This document shows, piece by piece, positions 5,422-56,347 of a DNA stretch of 64,000 nucleotides (position 1 is its first letter; each line of letters starts with the position of its first letter). The translations under genes and the position numbers were made by a program. Below the pieces are notes generated by a model. That model saw nothing but the letters and a program-made list of their open reading frames with translations, searched no databases and was not told the DNA's origin. Source of the DNA: Pirellulales bacterium (GTDB lineage Bacteria > Planctomycetota > Planctomycetia > Pirellulales > JADZDJ01); NCBI GenBank assembly GCA_035656635.1, contig DASRSD010000099.1, forward strand, positions 2 through 64,001, written 5' to 3'.

Positions 5422-7239
5422 TTATCCTTTGAGCACTCGTTGCAATTCCAAAAGCGACGTGACCCCTTTGACCACTAATACCAGGCCCTCTTCCTGAAAC
5501 GTCTTCATGCCGCCGCGGCGAGCAGCCGCACGCACTAAATCGAGCTTGGGGCTTTTCATCAACACTTCGCGCACACCGTCCTCAATCACCAACAGCTCGA
5601 ACAGTCCGGTGCGTCCTTTATAACCAATGCCCTGACATTCCGGGCAAGGCTTCTTGGGATCGGCCTGCGACGGGGTGCGATATAACTGCTGCACCTTGCC
5701 GGGCGGGATGCCAAACTGCTGCAGAATTTCGGCTGGAGCGGGATAGGCTTCCTTGCAGGCATCGCACAGCTTGCGGATTAATCGCTCGCAAATGACGCCG
5801 CTGACCGCGTTCACAAAATCCTTGGGCGGCACCTTCAATAGCAACACGCGCAACAATGTCTCCGGCGCATCTTTGGAGCGCAGGCCAGTCAAAATCAGCC
5901 GATCTTCCGCGACCTGCTCGCACAGCAGCTTAGCGGTGGCGGCATCGGTTAAGGTGCGCACAACCAAAGCATTCGGGTAGGTGCGGATGATTTTTTCCAA
6001 GGCTGGCACCGGCGTTTCGCCGGCTGCGGCATTGTAGGTGGTAACCTGCAAGTTTTCGATTTCGTGCTCGCGGTTGTTGACATCTTCCACCGCGGCAAAA
6101 TCGCGCACATACCGATCACAAGCCTTCAGCGCCGCATCGAACAAATTGCTCAAGCCGCCGTTGGGCATCGAGCTAAAAATCACAAACCCCGCACTTCGGC
6201 CTAGCAATTCCTTCAACTGCTCCTGCGTTTTGGCGCGGAGGCCCAATTCTTCCAGCGAATGAACCGGGGCCTTCGTAGGATGGAATTGGGCAACCACCCG
6301 CTCGCCGTTTTCCACGCCCACACTTTGCACTTTGCAGCCATAATGAGTTTGCTTGTAATTCGCCGACAAGGTTCCCGATTGGCGCTTCGCGCGTTCGTTG
6401 GCATCCAATCCGGCCATGGTTTTCAATACGGCGACAACCATGTTGCCGGATTCACGATCGCGGGGATCGACGTTGTGCCAGACGCCGTCAATTTGAAAGC
6501 GCACCGCGACGTTGGCAGCGGTGCATTCCAGCATGATGGCGTCGCCGCGTCGGTCGAGCATGTCTGCGACCATGTCTTTGGTCAGCACGTAGCCGGGCGA
6601 GCGCCGGGCGAGCATTAAATTGGCTTCGCCATCTCGGCCGCCACCGGAAGTGGCTTTAAATTTGACCGGCGCTCCTTTTTCATGATCTTGCTGCCGTTCC
6701 GTGGCAACCTTCACGCCAAATTTTCCGGCGACTTCGGCAAATACCTGCCGCAAGTGATCGATGGTCATTACCCGTTGGTGCGATTCTACCGCCTTGTTGC
6801 GAACAACAATGTAAACGCCCACGGGAACCAAATACGTCACGGCCATCAACGGGTAAGCTACCTCGAACCACGGCAATAGCCACAGGAGCAAAAAGGTAGC
6901 GATAAACGGACCGAACATGACGCCGTTCCAAATCATGTAGCTCATGTTCAGCCGCAAGCAATCCTGGCTAACCCAGTCGGCGGTTTTCACCCACAGCAAA
7001 AACAAAATCCACACCAAGAAGAATCGCGACAAGCTGAGGTAATACCCGTGGCCGCGCCCGATATCCGGTTCTTTGCCAAATTGTGTGACCGGTGGCAGCG
7101 GATAGGTCGGCCAGCCATTGGTTTCCTCCGACTGGGCAACTCCCGGAGTACTCGGCGGCTGAGCGGGCGCGCGCGAGGGCTGCCACAACAGAATGGCCCC
7201 GGCCAGGCATACAAAAATCAGCGCTGCCCAGCGTGACAT
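5422..7239 (-). CDS. GspE/PilB-type secretion ATPase homologue, membrane-anchored, Walker A degenerate (probable pseudo-ATPase)
   Basis: C-terminal two thirds follow GspE/PilB layout incl. CDAC...CPECQGIGYKGRTGLFELL tetracysteine; Walker A position reads FSSMPNGGLSN (6145-6180); N-terminus has signal-like segment plus 3 TM helices; ATG 7239-7237 overlaps pilT stop (TGATG). Confidence 0.75.
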   Translation of the reverse strand: MSRWAALIFVCLAGAILLWQPSRAPAQPPSTPGVAQSEETNGWPTYPLPPVTQFGKEPDIGRGHGYYLSLSRFFLVWILFLLWVKTADWVSQDCLRLNMSYMIWNGVMFGPFIATFLLLWLLPWFEVAYPLMAVTYLVPVGVYIVVRNKAVESHQRVMTIDHLRQVFAEVAGKFGVKVATERQQDHEKGAPVKFKATSGGGRDGEANLMLARRSPGYVLTKDMVADMLDRRGDAIMLECTAANVAVRFQIDGVWHNVDPRDRESGNMVVAVLKTMAGLDANERAKRQSGTLSANYKQTHYGCKVQSVGVENGERVVAQFHPTKAPVHSLEELGLRAKTQEQLKELLGRSAGFVIFSSMPNGGLSNLFDAALKACDRYVRDFAAVEDVNNREHEIENLQVTTYNAAAGETPVPALEKIIRTYPNALVVRTLTDAATAKLLCEQVAEDRLILTGLRSKDAPETLLRVLLLKVPPKDFVNAVSGVICERLIRKLCDACKEAYPAPAEILQQFGIPPGKVQQLYRTPSQADPKKPCPECQGIGYKGRTGLFELLVIEDGVREVLMKSPKLDLVRAAARRGGMKTFQEEGLVLVVKGVTSLLELQRVLKG

Positions 7240-8414
7240 CAAATCATTCCCGAGGACTTGACTTCGATGCCCTTGAGGGCCATTTTCAACGCCTCCACAT
7301 TGGGCGCCACTTCCAACGCCACGGTGCGGTCGATCAATTCGCGATCGACCAATTCTTTCAGACTCATGGTGAAGTCTTGCATGCCGTCCTTGGCAGAAAT
7401 TCGAATGAGGTCCGCCAATTTTTCGTCGCGCTCTTCCAAAATTAGTTTGCGCGCCATGGCGTTGAACGTCATAATTTCGACCGTCGGCACGCGGCCCACG
7501 CCTTCCTTGATGGAAGGCAACAATTTTTGAGCCACGATGCCGCGCATGTTGAAGGCAATGGCGCTGCGCAAAGCGGTGTGCATTTCGCGGGGGAATAAGT
7601 CCAAAATACGGCTGATGGTGCTGGGGGCACTGGAGGCGTGAATGGTGCCGAACACCAAGTGCCCCGTTTCGGCTGCGTGAATAGCCGTCATAAACGTTTC
7701 CTGATCGCGCATTTCGCCCACCAGCATGACGTCGGGATCCTCACGCACGGCGTGCTTCATGCCGATCGAAAAATCCTTTACGTCGGTGCCGACTTCGCGC
7801 TGGTTGATCAGGCACTTGTCTTCCGTGAACGTGAATTCAATGGGGTCTTCCAGCGTGAGAATATGCTTGCGGTAATGATGATTGATGTAGTTCAGCATCG
7901 ACGCAATTGTCGTGCTTTTGCCAGAGCCTGTGACTCCGGCCAGCAGAACCATGCCCTGGTCGAATTTGCACAAATCTTCCATGACGGGGGGCAAGTTGAG
8001 TCCCTCGAAATCGGGAATCCAGTTGTTCACGCGGCGGGCCACCATGCCGACGTGCCCGAGCTGCTGCAGCACGTTTACGCGGAACCGCCACTTGGTGCCA
8101 TCCACATCGACCACGTGGGCAAAGTCCGAGCCGCCGGTTTCCTCAAAAATCTTTTGCCGCCGCTCATCGAACATGCCGAAGATGAGGCGGACCATTTCTT
8201 CATCTTCAATGGGGCCGCGGCTCAAAGGGCGCAGCGAACCCTTGACGCGCACATACGGGGGGCGCCCCACCTTTAAATGCAAATCGCTCCCCTCGAGTTT
8301 GACCAGGGCGCGAAACAGCTTGTCGATTTCCAACTCCTCGTGCTTGACCAAAAACCGATCGACGGGGCTCTTCGCTTTGAAGTGATGATTGTTATTGTTT
8401 TCGCCGTGAGACAT
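7239..8414 (-). CDS. pilT: type IV pilus retraction ATPase PilT
   Basis: 391 aa; GVTGSGKSTT Walker A, LVGEMRD Walker B region, GHLVFGTIHA His box; PilT-length hexameric ATPase. Confidence 0.9.
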   Translation of the reverse strand: MSHGENNNNHHFKAKSPVDRFLVKHEELEIDKLFRALVKLEGSDLHLKVGRPPYVRVKGSLRPLSRGPIEDEEMVRLIFGMFDERRQKIFEETGGSDFAHVVDVDGTKWRFRVNVLQQLGHVGMVARRVNNWIPDFEGLNLPPVMEDLCKFDQGMVLLAGVTGSGKSTTIASMLNYINHHYRKHILTLEDPIEFTFTEDKCLINQREVGTDVKDFSIGMKHAVREDPDVMLVGEMRDQETFMTAIHAAETGHLVFGTIHASSAPSTISRILDLFPREMHTALRSAIAFNMRGIVAQKLLPSIKEGVGRVPTVEIMTFNAMARKLILEERDEKLADLIRISAKDGMQDFTMSLKELVDRELIDRTVALEVAPNVEALKMALKGIEVKSSGMI

Positions 8415-8481
8415 GGCTGTGTGAATGTCGAAGGACTATTTGATGATTGTCTAAATTGCAAATTCCGGACGTTTTAATTCG

Positions 8482-9249
8482 TTATAACCGCACTGGTATT
8501 CCGCGCTGCCGCATGGCTTCTTTGGCCTGCCGGATGGTGTACTGGCCGAAGTGGAAAATGCCGGCCGCCAAAGCGGCGTCGGCGTGACCCACGAGAATTG
8601 CTTCCGCCAGATGTTCCGGATGCCCCGCTCCGCCGCTGGCCACCACGGGAATGGCAACGGCCTGGCTGACGGCAGCGGTCATTTCTAAATCATAACCATT
8701 TTGCGTGCCGTCCGCATCCATGCAGGTGAGCACAATTTCGCCAGCCCCCAGCCGCTCCACCTCCTCCGCCCAGGGGACCGCTTGTTTACCCGTCGGCACT
8801 CGGCCGCCGTTGATGTGCACTTCCCACGATTCTGACCCGTTTTTCTGGGTCCGCTTGGGGTCAATATTCACCACAATGCATTGGCTGCCAAATTTACGGG
8901 CCGCCTCACGCACAAACTCCGGATTCTTGCAGGCTGCTGAATTAATCGAGACCTTATCGCATCCGGCGTTCAACAAAGCACGAATATCATCCAACGTGCG
9001 GATTCCACCCCCCACAGTCAGCGGCATGAACACCACTTCGGCGGTGCGCTTCACCACGTCGATCATCGTGGCCCGACCCTCGTGGCTGGCCGTGATGTCG
9101 AGAAACACCAATTCATCGGCCCCCTCGGCCTCGTATCGGGCAGCCACTTCCACTGGATCGCCGGCATCGCGCAAGTGGAGGAACTTGGTGCCTTTTACCA
9201 CTCGCCCGCGGTCGACATCTAAACACGGTATGACGCGCTTGGCAAGCAT
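8482..9249 (-). CDS. hisF: imidazole glycerol phosphate synthase cyclase subunit HisF
   Basis: [20 protein letters not shown]...[11 protein letters not shown]...PLTVGGGIR...VASGGAG full-length HisF pattern. Confidence 0.95.
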
Positions 9250-9398
9250 GGATGCCGCACACAGGAGGTTAAAGACTACTGGGACTGTGCTGGAGTCAGC
9301 ACCCAGGCCCGGCTTCTACTGGCAGACCGAACTCGTCACTGTAAATACAGGCCACTCGTCGGTCAATTGCCCTATCGGTCAGGAAATCGTAAGGGAAA

Positions 9399-10913
9399 CT
9401 ATGGCACGGGTTTTCCGTCGTAGACCGGGGCGGGCTTATTCGACTGCGGCGGTAGCAACGGCAGGGGAGCCGGTATGTCCAATGTCGCCTTTGTGGTCGA
9501 CGGTCCGTTCGACGAACTTCCAGGAACTGTCGGCAAAGGCGCCGGCGGAACTGCCAAATTCTCGGACGTTGTGCCAGTGCCGTATTTCTTGAACAGCTCG
9601 GCCGCTAAGCGATCGTTGGGAGCAAGTTTCACCGCCTCGCCGAGCTCCTTGGTCGCCTGGGGGTTGAAGCCCGTCATCAAGTATTGATACGCCAACAAGA
9701 AATGCCCTTCCGGAGCGGAGGGGTTCTCTTTCACAAACTTTTCCAACGCGCGGAGATGTTCGGTGTAGCGATCTTTGTCGTTGTAGTAACTAAAGACTTC
9801 GGCCCAATCGCCAGGCGGGCCCAATGCCAATGCCACGTGCGCTTGGGCCGCGGCATCACGATACTGCCCGATTGCAAACAGAGCCAACGACATTAATTCC
9901 GGTGCTTTTGGATTCTGGGGCGATTCAACGGCCGCATGATTTGCCAACCGCAAAGCATCGCGGTACTTGCCAGCCTGAAAGGCGTCGCCCGCCTGGCCGT
10001 AAAATTCCGCGCCGGCTTGCGATGTGGTTCCGGAATCGGCATTATTCTGCGGCAACGGCGTTTCCGGCGGCAACTGATTGGCATCAACAGCATTGGGATT
10101 GCTGCCGGCATAGGCCACCGTCTCGTCGATCGGCACACCATATCCCACGGGTTGATAGTACGCGGTGTCGTAACAATAAGGCGCGCCGTAGCCATAGTAA
10201 CCAAAGCCATAAAAGCAATCGCCAAATCCGCCAAACCACCACGGGAACCAAAATGGCGCCACCACGAAGCAGTTATGGAAATGATTGAAGTTACTGAAGT
10301 GATCGAAATGGTTGAAGTTGTCGAAGTGGTTGAAGTTATTGAAGTGGTTGAAATTGCCGTCGTGGGCAAATTGACCGTTATGAAATTGATTGCCATTTAG
10401 CTGGCTAAAATGTTCGCCTTGACTCCAGTTGTGGTTGAAGGCACCGTTCAATGACGAGCTATGGGAGAAGTTGGAGAGATTGCTGTGCGAAAGGTTCGAC
10501 ATCGAGGAAAAGTTTCTCGCTGCTGCGCTGCCGCTGAAATTCGCCGAACCGGGGAAGCCGCTGTGCGACATGCCGGAAAACTCGTGCCCGGAGACTTGGT
10601 TACCGAAGTTGCTGAAGTTTCGTGCGCTGCCAGAGAAGTTTGAACCCGCGCCCATGCCGCCAAAACTTGATCCGCCTCCGAAGCTGTGCATACTCATGCC
10701 GCTACCCATACTTGTGCCGCCGCCGAACCCACCACCAAACCCGCCGCCCCCCATGTGTCCGCCTCCCATGCCTCCACCGATTGCTCCGCCTCCACCTCCG
10801 CCACCGCCTCCGCCGCCACCATGGGCAAACGCCGGATTGGAATCGGCCGGCAGCATGAGGATCGCGAATGCCGACACCAAGACTGCGAAAAAGGTTTGTT
10901 TGGTCTTCGACAT
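9399..10913 (-). CDS. secreted low-complexity (Gly / Asn-Phe-His / aromatic) protein with C-terminal TPR-like domain
   Basis: 504 aa; signal peptide MSKTKQTFFAVLVSAFAILMLPADSNPAFA; G12 run; NFNHFx repeats; FWFPWWFGGFGDCFYGFGYYGYG block; TPR-like helices (AGKYRDALRLANHAA...). Confidence 0.7.
   Translation of the reverse strand: MSKTKQTFFAVLVSAFAILMLPADSNPAFAHGGGGGGGGGGGGAIGGGMGGGHMGGGGFGGGFGGGTSMGSGMSMHSFGGGSSFGGMGAGSNFSGSARNFSNFGNQVSGHEFSGMSHSGFPGSANFSGSAAARNFSSMSNLSHSNLSNFSHSSSLNGAFNHNWSQGEHFSQLNGNQFHNGQFAHDGNFNHFNNFNHFDNFNHFDHFSNFNHFHNCFVVAPFWFPWWFGGFGDCFYGFGYYGYGAPYCYDTAYYQPVGYGVPIDETVAYAGSNPNAVDANQLPPETPLPQNNADSGTTSQAGAEFYGQAGDAFQAGKYRDALRLANHAAVESPQNPKAPELMSLALFAIGQYRDAAAQAHVALALGPPGDWAEVFSYYNDKDRYTEHLRALEKFVKENPSAPEGHFLLAYQYLMTGFNPQATKELGEAVKLAPNDRLAAELFKKYGTGTTSENLAVPPAPLPTVPGSSSNGPSTTKATLDIPAPLPLLPPQSNKPAPVYDGKPVP
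10274..10356 (-). repeat. 18-nt tandem repeat encoding hexapeptide NFNHF[N/D/H], about 4 copies
   Basis: Minus strand reads aacttcaaccacttcgac-type units: NFNHFN NFNHFD NFNHFD HFS NFNHFH. Confidence 0.8.
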
Positions 10914-12709: not shown

Positions 12710-14887
12710 TTAAGCTAAACGAACTCCGGAAAATTTTTCGACCACCACGCGGCAATCGGGAAGCGAGCCCAGAAACGTTTTTCCATACGGCTTGGTGCGC
12801 AGCCGCGGATCGAGGATCACCACCATTCCCGTGTCGGTTTTCGTCCGAATGAGCCGGCCGAAGCCTTGCTTCAATTTGAGCACGGCCTCCGGCAGTTGAT
12901 AATCGACAAACGGATTGCCCCCGGCCGAGCGGATGGCCTCCAGCCGCGCTTCCAACAGCGGACGGTCGGGCACGCTGAAGGGGAGCTTGGTGATGATGAC
13001 GTTTTGCAGCGCGTCTCCGGGCACGTCCACCCCTTGCCAGAAACTATCGGTGCCCAACAGCACGCTGCGGGGATTTTTTTTGAACTGTGCCAGCAATTGG
13101 CTGCGTGGCGCGCCGTCGGCTTGTGATAACAGCGACAAATTATGCTCGGCTAGCCAGGGCGTGAGGGCGGCGGCCGTGCGACGAAGCATTTCATAGCTGG
13201 TGAACAGCACAAACGCATGGCCATCGGTGCGGGACACGTAGCGGCGAATCATTTCCTCGCACGCCTGCTGATACGCCTGCGCATCGCTGGGATCGGGCAG
13301 GCCCTCGGGCAGAATCAATTGCACCTGTCGTTGGTAATCGAAGGGACTGCCCAAGCGAAGGCAGGCCGATTGGGTGAGGCCAATGCGGGTTTTGAAGTAA
13401 TCGAAAGCGGGATCGGGACCGCCGACATTCTTTCCAGGCTTAGTGCTCCGCGCCGCAGACTCCGCGTCGCGGCTAAACGGCTTTGATCCACTGACCGTAA
13501 GCGTGGCGCTGGTCATAATGACGCTGGGCACCACGTCGAATAGTTGTTCCCGCAGGGCGGGGCCAACATCGATGGGTGCTGCGCACAGCGCGAACCGTTT
13601 GTGGCCGCGGCGCGATTTGGTCCGCTCGATCCAATAGACGGCCTCGGGCAAATCTTGCTTGATCCAGGTTTCGATTTCGGCGGCGATGCCCCGCAAACGC
13701 TCGGCGACGGAATTGAAATCGAAGCGCTCTTTGTCATCCTTGAATTTTTCGCCGTGCTGGCGGACCAGACGCGAAAGTTTATCGAGCGCCGGGCTGAGCA
13801 AGTTGGGCACGATGTCGGGCTTGGTTACGCGGCCGTTGGCGCCGTCGTCGAGCCACTGGTCAACGTCGTGGAAGAAATCGTCGGCCCGTACTCGGCAGCG
13901 TTCTACTTCCTGCTGGGCGTCGCCCAATTTGTAATGCACCAGCAGGCCGCGATTACTGCGGTCGTTGTAAAGCTTGTTGAGCGTGTACTCAATGGCTCTG
14001 GAGGAAATGCCCAGGCCTAAATGATCGCCGGCCACGCCTTCGACGGTGTGGGCTTCGTCGAGAATGGCGACATCGTAATTGGGCAAAATACTGGCGCCCG
14101 CGCGGCGAAGAGCCAGATCGCTGAAAAATAGGGCGTGATTGACGACCAAAATTTGTGCGTGGCTGGCGCGGCGACGGGCTTGGTAATAAAAGCAATCGGC
14201 ATAGGTCGGGCAGTTGCGGCCCATGCAGTTGCCGCTGTCGCTGGTAATTTCGTCCCAGACACTGTCGATGGGGCGGAAGGAAAGATCGGCCAGCGAGCCA
14301 TCGGGAGATTGTTGCGACCAGCGGCCGAGTTCGCCCAGTTGCTCCAGTTCTTCATCGACCAGGAACAAATTCCGGGCCCGATCTTGCGCCGCGTTCAGTC
14401 GCCGCCGACTGAGATAATTGTGCCGGCCTTTCACCAGCACCGCCGTGAATTCCTGCGGCATGACGGAGCGGAGCAGAGGAATATCTTTTTGGACAAGCTG
14501 CTCCTGTAGCGCAATGGTATGCGTGGAAACCACAATGCGGCGGATGGGACGCGGTTGGCTGCCGTCCGGTGCGCTCGCTCCGCTGCGCGGACTCCGCGTC
14601 GCGGCTAAACGAGGAGAACCGGCGGTTGAATCGGCATGACGGGCATCGGGTTCTTCGTCTTCGTCATTCGTGGGCGGCGGTTCAGCGGTGACAGCGAGAA
14701 TGGCCGGTACCAAATACGCAAAGCTTTTGCCGACGCCAGTGCCGGCTTCGACCATGAGATGCCGGCGACCTTCGATCGCCGCGGCCACAGCCTGCGCCAT
14801 TTCCAATTGTTGGGGCCGCTGTTCGTAACCGGTTAGCCGCGCCGCAATGCGCCCCTGCGGACCGAGAATTTCAACAGGATCGATCAT
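12710..14887 (-). CDS. dinG: ATP-dependent DNA helicase, DinG/Rad3 family
   Basis: ATG at 14887 ([12 protein letters not shown]); [16 protein letters not shown] Walker [14 protein letters not shown] box, Cys cluster [13 protein letters not shown]-terminal [13 protein letters not shown] and KQGFGRLIR motifs. Confidence 0.85.
13445..13479 (+). repeat. REP-like element copy inside dinG (read as PFSRDAES on coding strand)
   Basis: gctccgcgccgcaGACTCCGCGTCGCGGCTAAACG; the 22-nt core is identical to 14590-14611. Confidence 0.85.
14577..14611 (+). repeat. REP-like element copy inside dinG (read as RLAATRSP on coding strand)
   Basis: gctccgctgcgcgGACTCCGCGTCGCGGCTAAACG; 32/35 identical to 13445-13479, different reading frame. 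Confidence 0.85.
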
Positions 14888-14891
14888 GTTG

Positions 14892-14975
14892 AATGACCAA
14901 TGACCAAACCTCAATGACCAAAATGCCTTGCTTCCACATTGGTCATTGGTGCTTGGTTATTGGTGATTTTGATTT
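14892..14975. repeat. two inverted arrays of heptanucleotide repeats (AATGACC)n / (CATTGGT)n
   Basis: AATGACC AATGACC AAACCTC AATGACC at 14892-14919 and CATTGGT CATTGGT GCTTGGT TATTGGT at 14937-14964; 12-bp perfect complementarity 14896-14907 / 14939-14950. Confidence 0.85.
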
Positions 14976-52759: not shown

Positions 52760-53368
52760 ACTCATTGCCGGCGAGCGCACACGATGAGAAGAATGAAGGA
52801 AAATGACTGCGCGTCGCAGGGGTCGAACGGGTTCGCACCCTACATTCGCAAGTGCCGTGCCTGCCAACCATTTGCAACCATTCACCGCAGATATCGGCGG
52901 CAGGCTGCAAAACCCTCTCGCCACAAACCCTTAGCGAACAGGCGCTTTCGTCACCATATTGGAACATAGCCCATTTCGGGCGACCGCGAACAACCGGCGG
53001 GCAAATCGCTGGAAACCCGCTTTTTCTCGGCTCATGCCGAAACGGCAGTCTCGAATTGAGACGCCCTTGGCAATTGCGGCCATTCGCACGGACGAAAGTT
53101 GCCGCCGGCTTTTGTCCCCGATTATTATTTTCCGGACAGAACTGGAATGTTTTGTCGCAGGCTCGCTGCTGCCGGCAGGGAAAATTCGCGGATTTGCCAA
53201 GTGTTGTGCGTGACATAATCAGGCCAGTTTGCGTCGCAAAAGATGTATTGTTGGTGAATTGTTGCTCGTCAGGTCAGTGATCGGTGGTCGGTAAAAATTA
53301 GCCCCGGCTCTGCCGGGGGGCCGCAGCGGAAAACGGTCGCATCATCCCGCCGCATGGCACAAATTTTA

Positions 53369-53751: not shown

Positions 53752-53935
53752 GTGAGCGATAATTCGAAAATCGAATGGACCGACGCCATCGTGGAACCCC
53801 GTGCGCGGCTGCGTAAAAATCAGCCCCGGCTGCACGCATTGTTATGCTGCCACCTTCGCCGAGCGTTTCCGCGGCGTGCCAGGGCATCCGTATGAGGGCG
53901 GGGAGAATGTTTTACTTCACCCACAGGTGGGAATG
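53752..53935 (+). pseudogene. DUF5131 (phage Gp37/Gp68-like) gene fragment, frameshifted and 3'-truncated
   Basis: GTG 53752 gives VSDNSKIEWTDA; after 1 extra nt the next frame gives WNPVRGCVKISPGCTHCYAATFAERFRGVPGHPYEGG; only about 60 codons remain. Confidence 0.6.
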
Positions 53936-53940
53936 CTTAC

Positions 53941-53985
53941 TTCAAATCCACCGTCCAGTAGGCGTTGTCGACGAAGGTTTTTCGG
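53941..53985 (-). pseudogene. relic copy of the 3' end of the HNH endonuclease gene
   Basis: about 41/45 identical to 55718-55762; minus strand still reads KTFVDNAYWTVDLK-stop versus KTFVDSAYWTVDLK-stop in the intact gene. Confidence 0.8.
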
Positions 53986-54036
53986 AGGCAGGTTGCATGC
54001 CGCGGGGCCCGGTGGGTGAGCCGCGGGGCCGTGGAG

Positions 54037-54080
54037 ATTAAAACAGCGGCACCCCTGCGTGGCCGCAGAGGCTAAGCGGG
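54037..54080 (+). repeat. REP copy 1 (stem variant CTGCG/CGCAG)
   Basis: attaaaacagcggcacccCTGCGtggcCGCAGaggctaagcggg. Confidence 0.85.
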
Positions 54081-54135
54081 ATCGGCAGGGCGCGGCGGCG
54101 AAGGGGTGAATGGCTGCTGCGCGAACTAAGCCGGA

Positions 54136-54603
54136 TTACGCCACTGTGAAATCCCAGCCGGAAAGAACCAGGCTGGGCAGCAATTCGGGATTGTGGCTGA
54201 CGAGCTTGATTTCGATCGACCGCGGGCCGGCGGGAATTTTCAATTCCGCTTCGTAGGTGGCGCACCACTGCGTTTCGTCTTCGAACGGCTCCTCGGCCTG
54301 GTCGCGAGGAATGTAATCGTCGTCCACAAAGACCAACTCCTCAACCAGCTTGGCGGGCACCCAATCGGCGTGCGATTGCACATCGTCCTGATCGGTCGGG
54401 TTGTTGGGGTCGCCTATCCGCACGAAAATTTCCGCTTCGTCGAACGGGCCGTAAGAATTGGAATGCGTAATGCGGACCGTGGTGGGCCCGGCGGCGGTGG
54501 GCTGTTCCGGAATGGTGATGCCCTGTATTTCGGATTCGGCCGGCAGCTCCCAAAAGTTGGGCGAATCAGAAACCATTTTGTGCGTGGCGGCATTGGGGCT
54601 CAT
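54136..54603 (-). CDS. hypothetical acidic protein (passenger between REP copies)
   Basis: ATG at 54603 (MSPNAATHKMVSDSPNFWELP...); 155 aa; no family recognised. Confidence 0.5.
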   Translation of the reverse strand: MSPNAATHKMVSDSPNFWELPAESEIQGITIPEQPTAAGPTTVRITHSNSYGPFDEAEIFVRIGDPNNPTDQDDVQSHADWVPAKLVEELVFVDDDYIPRDQAEEPFEDETQWCATYEAELKIPAGPRSIEIKLVSHNPELLPSLVLSGWDFTVA

Positions 54604-54728
54604 ACGCGGTCCTCGCTGGTCAGTAAATGAGATGAGAATTTGAGACAGGACGCGAAGGCGAACGCCGGCTGTTATCGCGCGCGGCGAAGCCAGATGCAAG
54701 TGTTGTGGGACCGGGGAAATTAAAACAG

Positions 54729-54770
54729 ATTAAAACGGCAGGACCCCGCGTGGCCGCGGGGGCTAAGCGA
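54729..54770 (+). repeat. REP copy 2
   Basis: attaaaacggcaggaCCCCGCGtggcCGCGGGGgctaagcga; left end ATTAAAACAG duplicated at 54719-54728. Confidence 0.85.
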
Positions 54771-54922
54771 ATGAGTGGCGGGGGCTAAGCGGGTTCGGGG
54801 CAAAGCGGTATGATATGGGCCGCGAGGGCCAAGCGGGAGGATGGAGTGGCGAGGGGCAAAAAAATGAGGCGGTTGGAAATTCATGGTTAGCCCGGTCGGC
54901 CACGACCGGTGGAGCATTCGCA

Positions 54923-55630
54923 ATGTCGCGACCGGTAATTGGTTACCATTCGATTTTCGGCGCGTATGGATTTTGGCTTCCGAATGATCCCCGCGGGTCA
55001 TGGTCAGAGGTTGTGAAAGCCGAGCACTTGAAACCCTTTGGGGAACCGATTCATCCTGGCACGCGACACTCGGTTGCAAATCGAAAACACGATTCAGCCC
55101 TGCGGCTTGCGGCGAAACAACATCTGCTGCGGAAGAATGTCACATTCCGCGACGACCAAATTGAATGTCTGGCTGGCGGTTTTGGTGAATTGATCCGGCA
55201 AATAAAACTCGTCGTGTTTGCATTGGCGATCATGCCGGACCATGTGCACTTGGTTTATCCTCGACCCGAATGCGATGCGGAGGAATTTGTGGGCATGCTG
55301 AAGCGCGCGGGATCCAGGGCGCTGCGGAAAGCGGGGCTGCATCCGTTTGGCAAGGTCGATGATACCCGCGCGAAAGGTGAAAGCAGAACCGCTTGCGTGG
55401 ACGCGGGTGAAGCGGACGAAGAAATATCCCGCGTGGACGCGGGGGCTAAGCGGGAGAGGCGGTTGCCCACACCATGGGCCGAGAAAGCCTGGCACGTTTA
55501 TTTACACGACAAGCAGGAAATACGGCACAGGATTGGATACGTAGTGCAGAATCCCATCCAAGCGGGCAGGCCCGCGCAGCATTGGGATTTCGTGACGGCG
55601 TTTCACGATACGCCGCGTGGTTGCGGGTAA
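54923..55630 (+). CDS. REP-associated tyrosine transposase (RAYT; IS200-like Y1 HUH family)
   Basis: ATG at 54923 after GGAG; HUH motif MPDHVHLV; C-terminal catalytic-Tyr helix RIGYVVQNPIQAG; flanked by REPs. Confidence 0.8.
   Translation: MSRPVIGYHSIFGAYGFWLPNDPRGSWSEVVKAEHLKPFGEPIHPGTRHSVANRKHDSALRLAAKQHLLRKNVTFRDDQIECLAGGFGELIRQIKLVVFALAIMPDHVHLVYPRPECDAEEFVGMLKRAGSRALRKAGLHPFGKVDDTRAKGESRTACVDAGEADEEISRVDAGAKRERRLPTPWAEKAWHVYLHDKQEIRHRIGYVVQNPIQAGRPAQHWDFVTAFHDTPRGCG
55389..55454 (+). repeat. two REP copies inside the RAYT ORF
   Basis: ccgcttGCGTGGACGCgggtgaagcgg (55389-55415) and cCCGCGTGGACGCGGgggctaagcggg (55428-55454), translated ACVDAGEAD and SRVDAGAKR. Confidence 0.85.
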
Positions 55631-55632
55631 GG

Positions 55633-55715
55633 AAATAACCCCGCGTGGCCGCATGCGATTAATTCCCCGCGTGGCCGCGGGGGCTAAGCGGGATGACAGG
55701 TTGCGGGGGCTAAGC
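55633..55715 (+). repeat. REP copies 5 and 6 plus a half copy abutting the HNH stop codon
   Basis: aaataaCCCCGCGtggcCGCatgcg / attaattCCCCGCGtggcCGCGGGGgctaagcgg / gcgggggctaagc. Confidence 0.85.
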
Positions 55716-56347
55716 TATTTCAAATCGACGGTCCAGTAGGCGCTGTCGACGAAGGTTTTCCAGCTTTCGTACTTGGGGTTATCGAGCTTCACGGACAATA
55801 GCGGGCTGCGCTTCGGCTTAATTGGCGGGCGGACCAATTTCATGTGCGCTTCGTGCGGCGTGCGGCCCCCTTTGCGCACGTTGCAGTTGACGCAGGCGCA
55901 CACCACGTTTTCCCAACTGGTTTCGCCGCCGCGGCTGCGGGGCATGATGTGATCTAAGCTCAATTCGCTGGTTGGGAACACTTTGCCGCAATATTGGCAA
56001 TGGTTGCCGTCGCGGGCAAACAGATTGCGGCGGTTGAAGCGCAGCGTTTGCCGCGGCACTTTATCGTAAGAGAGCAGCCGGATGACGCGCGGGGCTTGCA
56101 GCTCGAAATTGACAGCGCGAATCCAATCTTCGTGCTGCTGCTTGCAGGCGGCCCGCATGGTGCTGATTTCCAACCAGGTTTCGAAGTTGTAGTTGGCGTA
56201 TTGGCCTTCTTCGAAATGAATGACTTCGGCCAGCTCGCGGAACAACAGTCCCAAGGCCCGGCGGACGTTGATGACGTGCACCGCCATGTAAAACCGGTTG
56301 AGCACCAACACGCTGGAACTAAGCCCGCCTTGAGCAAATGCCGTCAT
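55715..56347 (-). CDS. HNH endonuclease
   Basis: HCQYCGK...LSLDHIMPRSRGGETSWENVVCACVNCNVRKG (HNH with CxxC pairs); 210 aa. Confidence 0.88.
   Translation of the reverse strand: MTAFAQGGLSSSVLVLNRFYMAVHVINVRRALGLLFRELAEVIHFEEGQYANYNFETWLEISTMRAACKQQHEDWIRAVNFELQAPRVIRLLSYDKVPRQTLRFNRRNLFARDGNHCQYCGKVFPTSELSLDHIMPRSRGGETSWENVVCACVNCNVRKGGRTPHEAHMKLVRPPIKPKRSPLLSVKLDNPKYESWKTFVDSAYWTVDLK

Follow-up and report, generated by a model that had tools for sequence, protein, structure and literature searches.

A probable REPtron with TTAG-footed hairpins around a RAYT-type gene in a Pirellulales genome

REPtrons, the bacterial interspersed mosaic elements (BIMEs) and hairpin-forming doublets (REPINs) built from repetitive extragenic palindromic (REP) sequences, and the tyrosine transposases that go with REPs (RAYTs) are well described, and work on REP/RAYT systems has been carried out almost wholly in Proteobacteria. 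Here, a 64,000-nt stretch from a Pirellulales bacterium (contig DASRSD010000099.1; the whole stretch is called the window) was analyzed for a locus at positions 54037-55715, where a RAYT-like gene lies within hairpin repeats of its own. A preliminary description had called this locus REPtron-like, which our analyses bear out; we consider it probable that the locus is a REPtron, i.e. a single, vertically inherited, and domesticated HUH/Tyr (Y1) nuclease of RAYT/TnpA_REP type that is accompanied by the REP hairpins cognate to it. The E. coli K-12 REPtron (tnpA_REP/rayT with Y and Z2 REPs; 4ER8) resembles it in having a single Y1 HUH/Tyr gene between inverted short hairpins, two stem types that are always opposed in orientation (as are Y and Z REPs), a conserved foot tetranucleotide, a Y-x3-N-P motif, and, in related genomes, extragenic dispersal as inverted doublets (BIME/REPIN). 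On the other hand, the foot here is TTAG (tail GCTAA(A/G)C) rather than GTAG, and the short stems pair perfectly over 7-8 bp, without a bulge, around a 4-nt loop. The protein, of ~197-235 aa with a conserved N-terminal YGFWLPNDPRGSWS, does not reach the curated RAYT cut-off, the hairpin frequently overlies the stop codon, and the host belongs to another phylum.

Planctomycetota are not new territory for REPs, because Di Nocera et al. 2013 (PMC3733652) described REP families with GTAG tags from Rhodopirellula baltica, along with "a plethora" of genes for tyrosine transposases, and had two Planctomyces genomes among the strains analyzed. The R. baltica families GTAG-20, -21, and -22, named in the supplementary table of intragenic elements of that article, share with the present family the phylum, the many Tyr-transposase genes with flanking palindromes, and the occurrence as singletons and dimers with some intragenic copies, but they differ in their GTAG-type tags and, as far as the supplementary peptides go, in intragenic peptides unlike PRGRGG or RVDAGAK. 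The tag variants given in the text of that article are GTAG, GYAG, GYRG, GTRG, GTMG, and GTGG, none of which has T in the first position, and it is by this text and the supplementary peptides, not by the consensus figure, that the present family is set apart. In the classification of Quentin et al. 2018 (PMC6006769), a survey with a Pfam profile as entry filter, most RAYT subclasses have GT[AG]G feet, subclass 2.6 and class 3 being atypical; class 3 TnpAY1 is associated with Planctomycetes and has a CnGA foot and a Y-x4-Q motif, and in-frame REP insertions are described as unique to subclass 2.4. With DHVH, W[HK], and YV.xNP, the present family matches no motif row of that classification. Subclass 2.4 (RAYT group 4, from Cyanobacteria and Bacteroidetes; PMC6006769) is similar in that in-frame REPs, variable in number, lie between HuH and Tyr; there, the insert is between beta3 and alphaC, the REPs, some of them double-footed, are long and have GT[AG]G as their foot, and the motifs are NH[IFV]H and WQ, whereas here the insert follows the post-HUH helix and precedes the W strand (residues 141-185) and the motifs are DHVH and W[HK]. 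Full-text literature searches found no other treatment of REPs in Planctomycetota. The earlier suggestion that neither the phylum nor the repeat consensus had been described is, therefore, not tenable for the phylum, given the R. baltica report of 2013 and the TnpAY1 class in Planctomycetes; the TTAG-footed REP/RAYT family itself, compared with the text of PMC3733652, looks undescribed, although the kind of system is already known.

The family unit consists of a GC-rich stem of 7-8 bp, a 4-nt loop (TGGN in this lineage), and, immediately behind the hairpin, GCTAA(A/G)C. CCCCGCG-TGGC-CGCGGGG-GCTAAGCG is found on the plus strand at 54055, 54746, 55429, and 55667 with 3, 0, 1, and 0 mismatches, respectively, and a search for CCGCGTGGCCGCGGGGGCTAAGCG with up to three mismatches gave four plus-strand matches and none elsewhere in the 64-kb window, where shuffles lead one to expect 0.00. 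To accept every hairpin with CTAA behind it proved too loose a criterion (11 sites in the window versus 11.25 in shuffles) and was replaced by a covariance model built from 43 units, with which the window was scored whole and with filters off; its five strong matches, starting at 55662, 54741, 55424, and 54050 (plus strand) and at 54881 (minus strand), are all at the locus. The hairpin repeats are real and not expected by chance, and units crowd this locus with unusual density, copies inside the gene included. Units F2 (54741-54772, plus strand, 39.7 bits) and F4 (55662-55693, plus strand, 40.1 bits) are the only exact copies of the consensus and identical to each other, and both fold, as does the inverted unit R (54881-54912, minus strand, 36.1 bits; repeat I2), into a 7-bp stem with a 4-nt loop (z-scores of -2.5, -2.0, and -2.9, respectively). 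Unit R, picked up by the repeat finder at 54887-54904, reads CCGGTCG-TGGC-CGACCGG-GCTAA and then C on the minus strand (TTAGCC-CGGTCG-GCCA-CGACCG-G on the plus strand); its loop and tail are those of the F units, but its stem is a different one and fully compensated. The earlier statement that all copies share one orientation is contradicted by this unit, and so is the contrast drawn from it with BIMEs, because an inverted partner with another stem is present here and many inverted doublets occur in related genomes; the window contains one F...R pair (54741-54772 and 54881-54912). R sits 11 nt upstream of the RAYT start codon, and the same unit occupies this place in the homologous loci L004, L005, and L007. 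Unit F1 (54050-54081, plus strand, three mismatches, 27.9 bits, E 4.6e-6), which adjoins the 3' side of a conserved minus-strand gene of 155 aa, has the tail GGCTAAGCGG and the stem CTGCG/CGCAG where the others have CCGCG/CGCGG. The compensatory double change noticed there in the preliminary description is real, but the outer stem of F1 also has a C/A mismatch and its fold is weak; neither in F1 nor in the in-ORF unit F3 (55424-55455, plus strand, 38.5 bits) is the hairpin the minimum-energy fold.

The gene enclosed by these units (54923-55630, plus strand) is predicted to encode a RAYT-like HUH/Tyr (Y1) protein of 235 aa with H107 and H109 as the HUH histidines and Y206 (YVVQNP) as the catalytic tyrosine; the motifs DHVHLV and RIGYVVQNP, by which a HUH/Tyr transposase had been recognized before, are indeed present in this Y1-type open reading frame (ORF). 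The long ORF extends over 54815-55630, and the true start is ATG 54923, with GGTGGAG before it, where homologues begin with MSRP..YH; the Joint Genome Institute gene call, starting at GTG 55013 (205 aa), lacks 30 conserved residues at the N-terminus, to which the first beta strand and the YGFWLPNDPRGSWS motif belong. A homology search retrieved 2,640 relatives, the best 120 of which were used to count C-terminal and in-ORF motifs; residue invariance and family models were compared in 69 aligned homologues. H107, H109, Y206, N210, and P211 are invariant among these 69, and the Tyr motif consensus YVExNP conforms to Y-x3-N-P, which PMC6006769 defines as the RAYT type, and not to the IS200-type Y-x3-Q. 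The 235-aa product matches Pfam Y1_Tnp with 25.1 bits, above the cut-off of 23, and scores 46 bits with REP_Tyr_transpos versus 23 bits with the IS200 model; all 69 relatives match REP_Tyr_transpos, each more strongly than IS200 (best E 1.5e-16). For the AlphaFold model (mean predicted local distance difference test (pLDDT) of 78.7, predicted template modeling score of 0.75), the best Foldseek matches in the PDB are ISDra2 TnpA, 4er8 TnpA_REP of E. coli, and IS608 TnpA (E 1e-4 to 2e-3, probability 1.00), with which a profile search of PDB sequences agrees. The ORF encodes a HUH/Tyr Y1 enzyme that is closer to RAYTs than to IS200, and the earlier concern that it might be an ordinary IS200 transposase is answered by the better match to REP_Tyr_transpos and the Y-x3-N-P motif. 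Compared with a typical 197-aa member, the protein carries a ~38-aa insertion between HPF and RLPTPW, which is the translation of two REP units: a decayed one at 55388-55411 (plus strand, CTTGCG-TGGA-CGCGGG-TGAAGCGG; repeat D2) and F3, both in frame, the latter encoding ..SRVDAGAKRE... The insertion (residues 141-185, pLDDT ~50) forms a low-confidence loop between HUH and Tyr. The closest relatives have one to three in-frame units at the same place in the ORF, and RV.A.AK is present in 6 of the best 120 homologues. A second point of contact is the stop codon: an intact forward unit lying over it, CCG CGT GGC CGC GGG GGC TAA, is read as PRGRGG*, and this C-terminus is found in 17 of the same 120. 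In the window, a decayed unit in that position (55608-55630, plus strand, CGCCGCG-TGGT-TGCGGG-TAA; repeat finder and fold) is read as PRGCG*.

The genomic context of the gene was compared with that of RAYT homologues of 38-70% identity (L001, L002, L004-L007, and L112). The series inverted unit-RAYT-forward unit-HNH-100-aa ORF-isocitrate/isopropylmalate dehydrogenase (Iso_dh) is collinear with L004, and the ratio of nonsynonymous to synonymous substitution rates (dN/dS) of RAYT is 0.085 versus L004 (dS 2.7, saturated) and 0.18 versus L005; the gene is under purifying selection. There is one RAYT copy in 64 kb, every protein cluster that was looked up has a single genomic context, no tnpB neighbor was found in any locus examined, and a tblastn search of RAYT against 72,556 plasmids gave no match. 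Because of the synteny with L004 at saturated dS, the low dN/dS, and the absence of tnpB and of plasmid matches in these comparisons, RAYT would fit the picture of a gene that is inherited vertically and kept by selection, and not that of an insertion sequence (IS). It could be argued that the locus is an ordinary IS of the IS200/IS605 type, the hairpins being its subterminal ends on the left and on the right, and the additional copies being debris of transposition. Members such as IS608 and ISDra2 share the Y1 HUH fold, recognize folded subterminal hairpins in single-stranded DNA, and have cleavage guided by a foot-adjacent tetranucleotide; same-orientation F hairpins stand on both sides of the gene as IS200 ends do, the top PDB match by structure and by sequence is ISDra2 TnpA, and 49 of the 69 family members also match the IS200 model. 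However, IS200/IS605 elements occur as multiple near-identical mobile copies, often with tnpB and with Y-x3-Q, whereas this gene lies at the same chromosomal spot beside HNH and Iso_dh in a relative with saturated synonymous sites, has Y-x3-N-P, no tnpB, and no plasmid copy, and scores higher with REP_Tyr_transpos than with IS200. In addition, the start-proximal unit is inverted, which makes an inverted pair around the gene, and the hairpins mostly occur without a gene, no transposase being found within the listed stretch at 119 of at least 120 hairpin sites. An ordinary IS is, therefore, unlikely.

The REPtron reading extends to the relatives, where tailed hairpins in both orientations bracket the RAYT homologues wherever the flank suffices (L001, L002, L004-L007, and L112). 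On the upstream side, the start is preceded at a distance of a few tens of nucleotides by an inverted unit, often with a forward unit ahead of it; on the downstream side, a forward unit lies at or just past the stop, often with an inverted unit before or after it. The layout common to the family is one of inverted hairpins, heads outward, on either side of the gene, as is known from classical REPtrons and BIMEs. Hairpin diversity was followed in 80 further metagenome RAYT loci, many of which have -/+ or -+/-+ layouts and in which stems and loops vary widely while the tail GCTAA(A/G)C or CGCTAAAC is kept. For example, L155, L178, L152, L187, and L192 represent other RAYT subclades with differing hairpins and a retained (C)GCTAA(A)C tail, often with -+ doublets on both sides; hairpins in other subclades include GGGGATC-TTAC-GATCCCC, CGGCCCG-TATA-CGGGCCG, and CGTCGAG-CAGG-CTCGACG. 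Because stems and loops vary while the tail persists, the conserved element is the flank, and these data suggest that hairpin and enzyme co-diversify with the foot fixed. The invariant flank GCTAA (alignment columns 22-26) corresponds on the other strand to 5'-TTAGC, so that 5'-G(T/C)TTAGC stands directly at the hairpin foot, in the position of the classical GTAG; the GT[AG]G foot by which REPs are defined is thus replaced at the same position by a tetranucleotide differing in its first base. In a survey of 88 RAYT genes, 239 tail sites lie within 300 nt of a gene, 47% of them immediately preceded by a perfect hairpin of 6 bp or more (6% when shuffled), and units bracket the gene in 44 of the 88 loci. 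Among 83 units selected by their tail and set to the 7-bp/4-nt geometry, 65.9% of cells pair, compared with 47.4% for shuffled partners (reached in 0 of 500 shuffles) and 39-47% when slid, and all seven stem pairs show changes on both sides; G-T pairs are tolerated. Covariation is clear in this tail-selected alignment, and the hairpin is under selection, as the preliminary description had argued from F1.

Dispersal of the units was followed with CGCGTGGNCGCGGNGGCTAA as query in one genome per species, giving at least 120 stretches of up to 8 kb in ~35 metagenome-assembled genomes (MAGs), with many contigs per MAG. All listed matches but one are labeled Planctomycetota (Pirellulales, Planctomycetaceae, Thermoguttaceae, Phycisphaerae, and Tepidisphaerales), and one of the at least 120 listed stretches encodes a RAYT. 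In related Planctomycetota genomes, the hairpins are, therefore, not confined to RAYT loci, which answers, at the level of the family, the earlier question of whether the repeat is confined to its locus; within the 64-kb window, all strong copies are at the locus. Among the matches listed are 33 -+ doublets with spacers of 0-25 nt and TTAG heads facing outward, often made of two different stems. The dispersed units lie mostly between genes: 50 of 148 (34%) fall in ORFs, a figure resting on crude greedy ORF calls that cover 87% of the DNA, and a third of these come to within 45 nt of where the ORF ends. The covariance model finds 1-3 extra units per 20 kb around four other RAYT genes, and in 8 of 17 cases a distant unit has the same loop as the units that flank RAYT at its own locus, compared with 3.9% across loci.

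The extragenic position of most units, together with the frequent intergenic inverted doublets, would also be expected if they were regulatory or structural elements of the host, such as transcript-end stabilizers, terminators lacking a T-tract, or protein-binding sites, which the RAYT does not mobilize; the tolerated G-T stem pairs are compatible with an RNA function, and classical REPs have secondary roles of this kind (PMC6006769). Yet intrinsic terminators, which were considered for the F units, were rejected, since no F unit is followed by a T-tract and a terminator scan gave fewer sites than shuffles, and an Rfam search at the locus gave no family match. The bracketing of 44 of 88 RAYT loci by units with lineage-specific stems and loops that match distant copies of the same locus speaks against a purely host-driven origin, and the in-ORF copies are more simply explained by a mobilizing enzyme. 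We regard this alternative as improbable, although a host role and RAYT-driven spread could coexist. A sigma-70-like promoter was likewise looked for, and none was found.

Besides the strong units, the cluster contains partial and decayed ones, all on the plus strand. Its left edge is formed by two degenerate half units, GCCGCGGGGCC (53998-54036), which, as read from the sequence, are like the 3' arm without the tail. The 3' half GGGGCTAAGCG occurs seven times, and the scattered half copies reported earlier are confirmed as three isolated ones at 54781, 54797, and 55706; the first two fall in a run of half units (3' arm plus tail) comprising GTGGCGGGGGCTAAGCGG, GGGGCAAAGCGG, and GGCCGCGAGGGCCAAGCGGG (54775-54838; repeat families D3, D5, and D6), and the third in the half unit GTTGCGGGGGCTAAGCT (55700-55716; D3), which shares 2 nt with the stop codon of HNH. 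A truncated unit with 5' arm, loop, and partial 3' arm is present at 55638-55653 (D4, 100% over 15 nt). The A/T-rich leader ATTAAAAC is present twice before F2 (54718-54740; direct repeat D11, 86% identity), and a leader resembling it precedes F1 (54035-54049); the earlier assignment of such a leader to the units is valid for these two copies and not for the others, before which it is absent. Likewise, the earlier count of at least six copies is reached only when the decayed units at 55388-55411, 55608-55630, and 55638-55653 are included, the exact consensus being present twice, and the preliminary description contained neither the two in-frame copies inside the RAYT ORF nor the beginning of the cluster further left, at ~53998. 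This degeneration raises the question of whether the locus is a decaying remnant, with an inactive RAYT and relic copies but no living REP population. All strong units of the 64 kb being at the locus, the degenerate state of the stop-codon unit, of one in-ORF unit, and of several others, and the scrambled look of the surroundings (a DUF5131 fragment and a duplicated HNH 3' end) would agree with such a remnant. It is nevertheless very unlikely, because the ORF is intact with all invariant catalytic residues kept, it is under purifying selection (dN/dS 0.09-0.18), and the two perfect, identical flanking copies suggest recent copying or conservation.

If the locus is a REPtron, the gene product probably recognizes the neighboring hairpins, by analogy with E. 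coli TnpA_REP and with IS608/ISDra2. On the model of these enzymes, it would bind the folded hairpin on single-stranded DNA, the foot tetranucleotide would place the cleavage, and cutting and rejoining through a 5'-phosphotyrosine bond at Y206 would spread or maintain the REP units. A preference for action in cis, again by analogy, might account for the accumulation of full, truncated, and half units near the gene, as well as for the copies that stand in frame in a disordered loop of its own. Several findings weigh against reading the locus as a REPtron. The REP_Tyr_transpos score of 46.2 bits lies below the curated cut-off of 80 (NCBIfam NF047646), both the PDB sequence search and Foldseek place ISDra2 TnpA slightly above TnpA_REP, and the guide-recognition step is an extrapolation because the foot is TTAG rather than GT[AG]G. 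In addition, every strong unit of the 64-kb window sits at the RAYT locus, the remaining 62 kb holding only three weak relatives by the covariance model.

A wider reading, which we put forward tentatively, is that of an undescribed phylum-wide REP/RAYT lineage of Planctomycetota (Planctomycetia and Phycisphaerae) with a TTAG foot, in which a head-out doublet has the RAYT gene itself for its spacer (TTAGCC-hairpin, gene, hairpin-GGCTAA), the doublets dispersed with spacers of 0-25 nt derive from that arrangement by deletion, and the hairpin supplies the stop codon and C-terminus. If true, this would provide a living picture of REPINs arising from an autonomous element and a natural experiment in how Y1 enzymes read guide tetranucleotides. 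Because its foot is TTAG and most RAYT family members are without a precomputed Pfam match, the family would slip past surveys based on GT[AG]G feet and on Pfam Y1_Tnp. Confirmation would widen the sequence rules for guide recognition by Y1 nucleases, indicate that a REP core is kept across class-level divergence, and offer a simple signature for annotation, GCTAA(A/G)C behind a hairpin, by which to recognize a common repeat that makes spurious C-termini (PRGRGG), in-frame gene inserts, and probably assembly breaks in these GC-rich genomes.

The weak relatives elsewhere in the window include one in a DinG-like helicase gene (...GACTCCGCGTCGCGGCTAAACG; 13446-13482, plus strand, 19 bits, E 0.0016) and another in a different frame of the same gene (14592-14614, plus strand, 16.6 bits, E 0.008). 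GACTCCGCGTCGCGGCTAAACG is an exact 22-nt repeat at 13458-13479 and 14590-14611 within the helicase ORF (12710-14914, minus strand), whose two copies are translated in different frames, and the copy at 14592-14614 falls in a ~45-aa insertion relative to the Pfam DEAD profile. Because the same unit type also flanks RAYT genes in metagenome loci, the helicase copies look like in-frame REP-derived inserts of a second REP subfamily. About 600 nt to the left of the cluster, the minus strand carries CCCCGGC-AGA-GCCGGGG followed by CTAATTTT (53292-53320, 15.3 bits, E 0.019), which may represent either a unit in decay or, without relation to the family, a terminator-like hairpin. Among the listed matches in other genomes, L106 (JAJFKG010000057.1) is a head-out doublet in a MAG labeled Gammaproteobacteria, the sole label outside Planctomycetota, and could be a misbinned contig or a transfer. 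Beside RAYT on the 878-kb contig of L001, the gene for the large subunit of carbamoyl-phosphate synthase (6005-9872) is split into ~six called genes, and a weak match to the REP model lies inside it at 6845-6866; the splitting could be due to assembly frameshifts or repeat insertions.

Regarding the neighboring genes, a functional link between HNH and RAYT was rejected, since their adjacency is shared only with L004 and the neighbors differ in L001, L002, L006, and L007; in L005, the sequence downstream of RAYT differs and the downstream gene is cut by the contig end. The ORF at 54136-54603 (minus strand), between F1 and F2, was considered as cargo of the element and rejected, as it belongs to a widespread conserved 153-aa family. 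A direct repeat of 44 nt (53938-53981 and 55716-55759, 91% identical) encloses the whole cluster. Both copies correspond to the 3' end of the HNH gene (the last 14 codons and part of the stop), the left one being an orphan fragment that is 93% identical to the HNH 3' end of L004, which points to duplication or rearrangement on a local scale and not to a target-site duplication. Just to the left of this orphan piece, 53753-53910 holds the N-terminal part of a DUF5131 (phage Gp37/Gp68-like) gene, truncated and disrupted in its frame, which matches Pfam PF07505 with 36 bits over profile positions 15-74 of 243.

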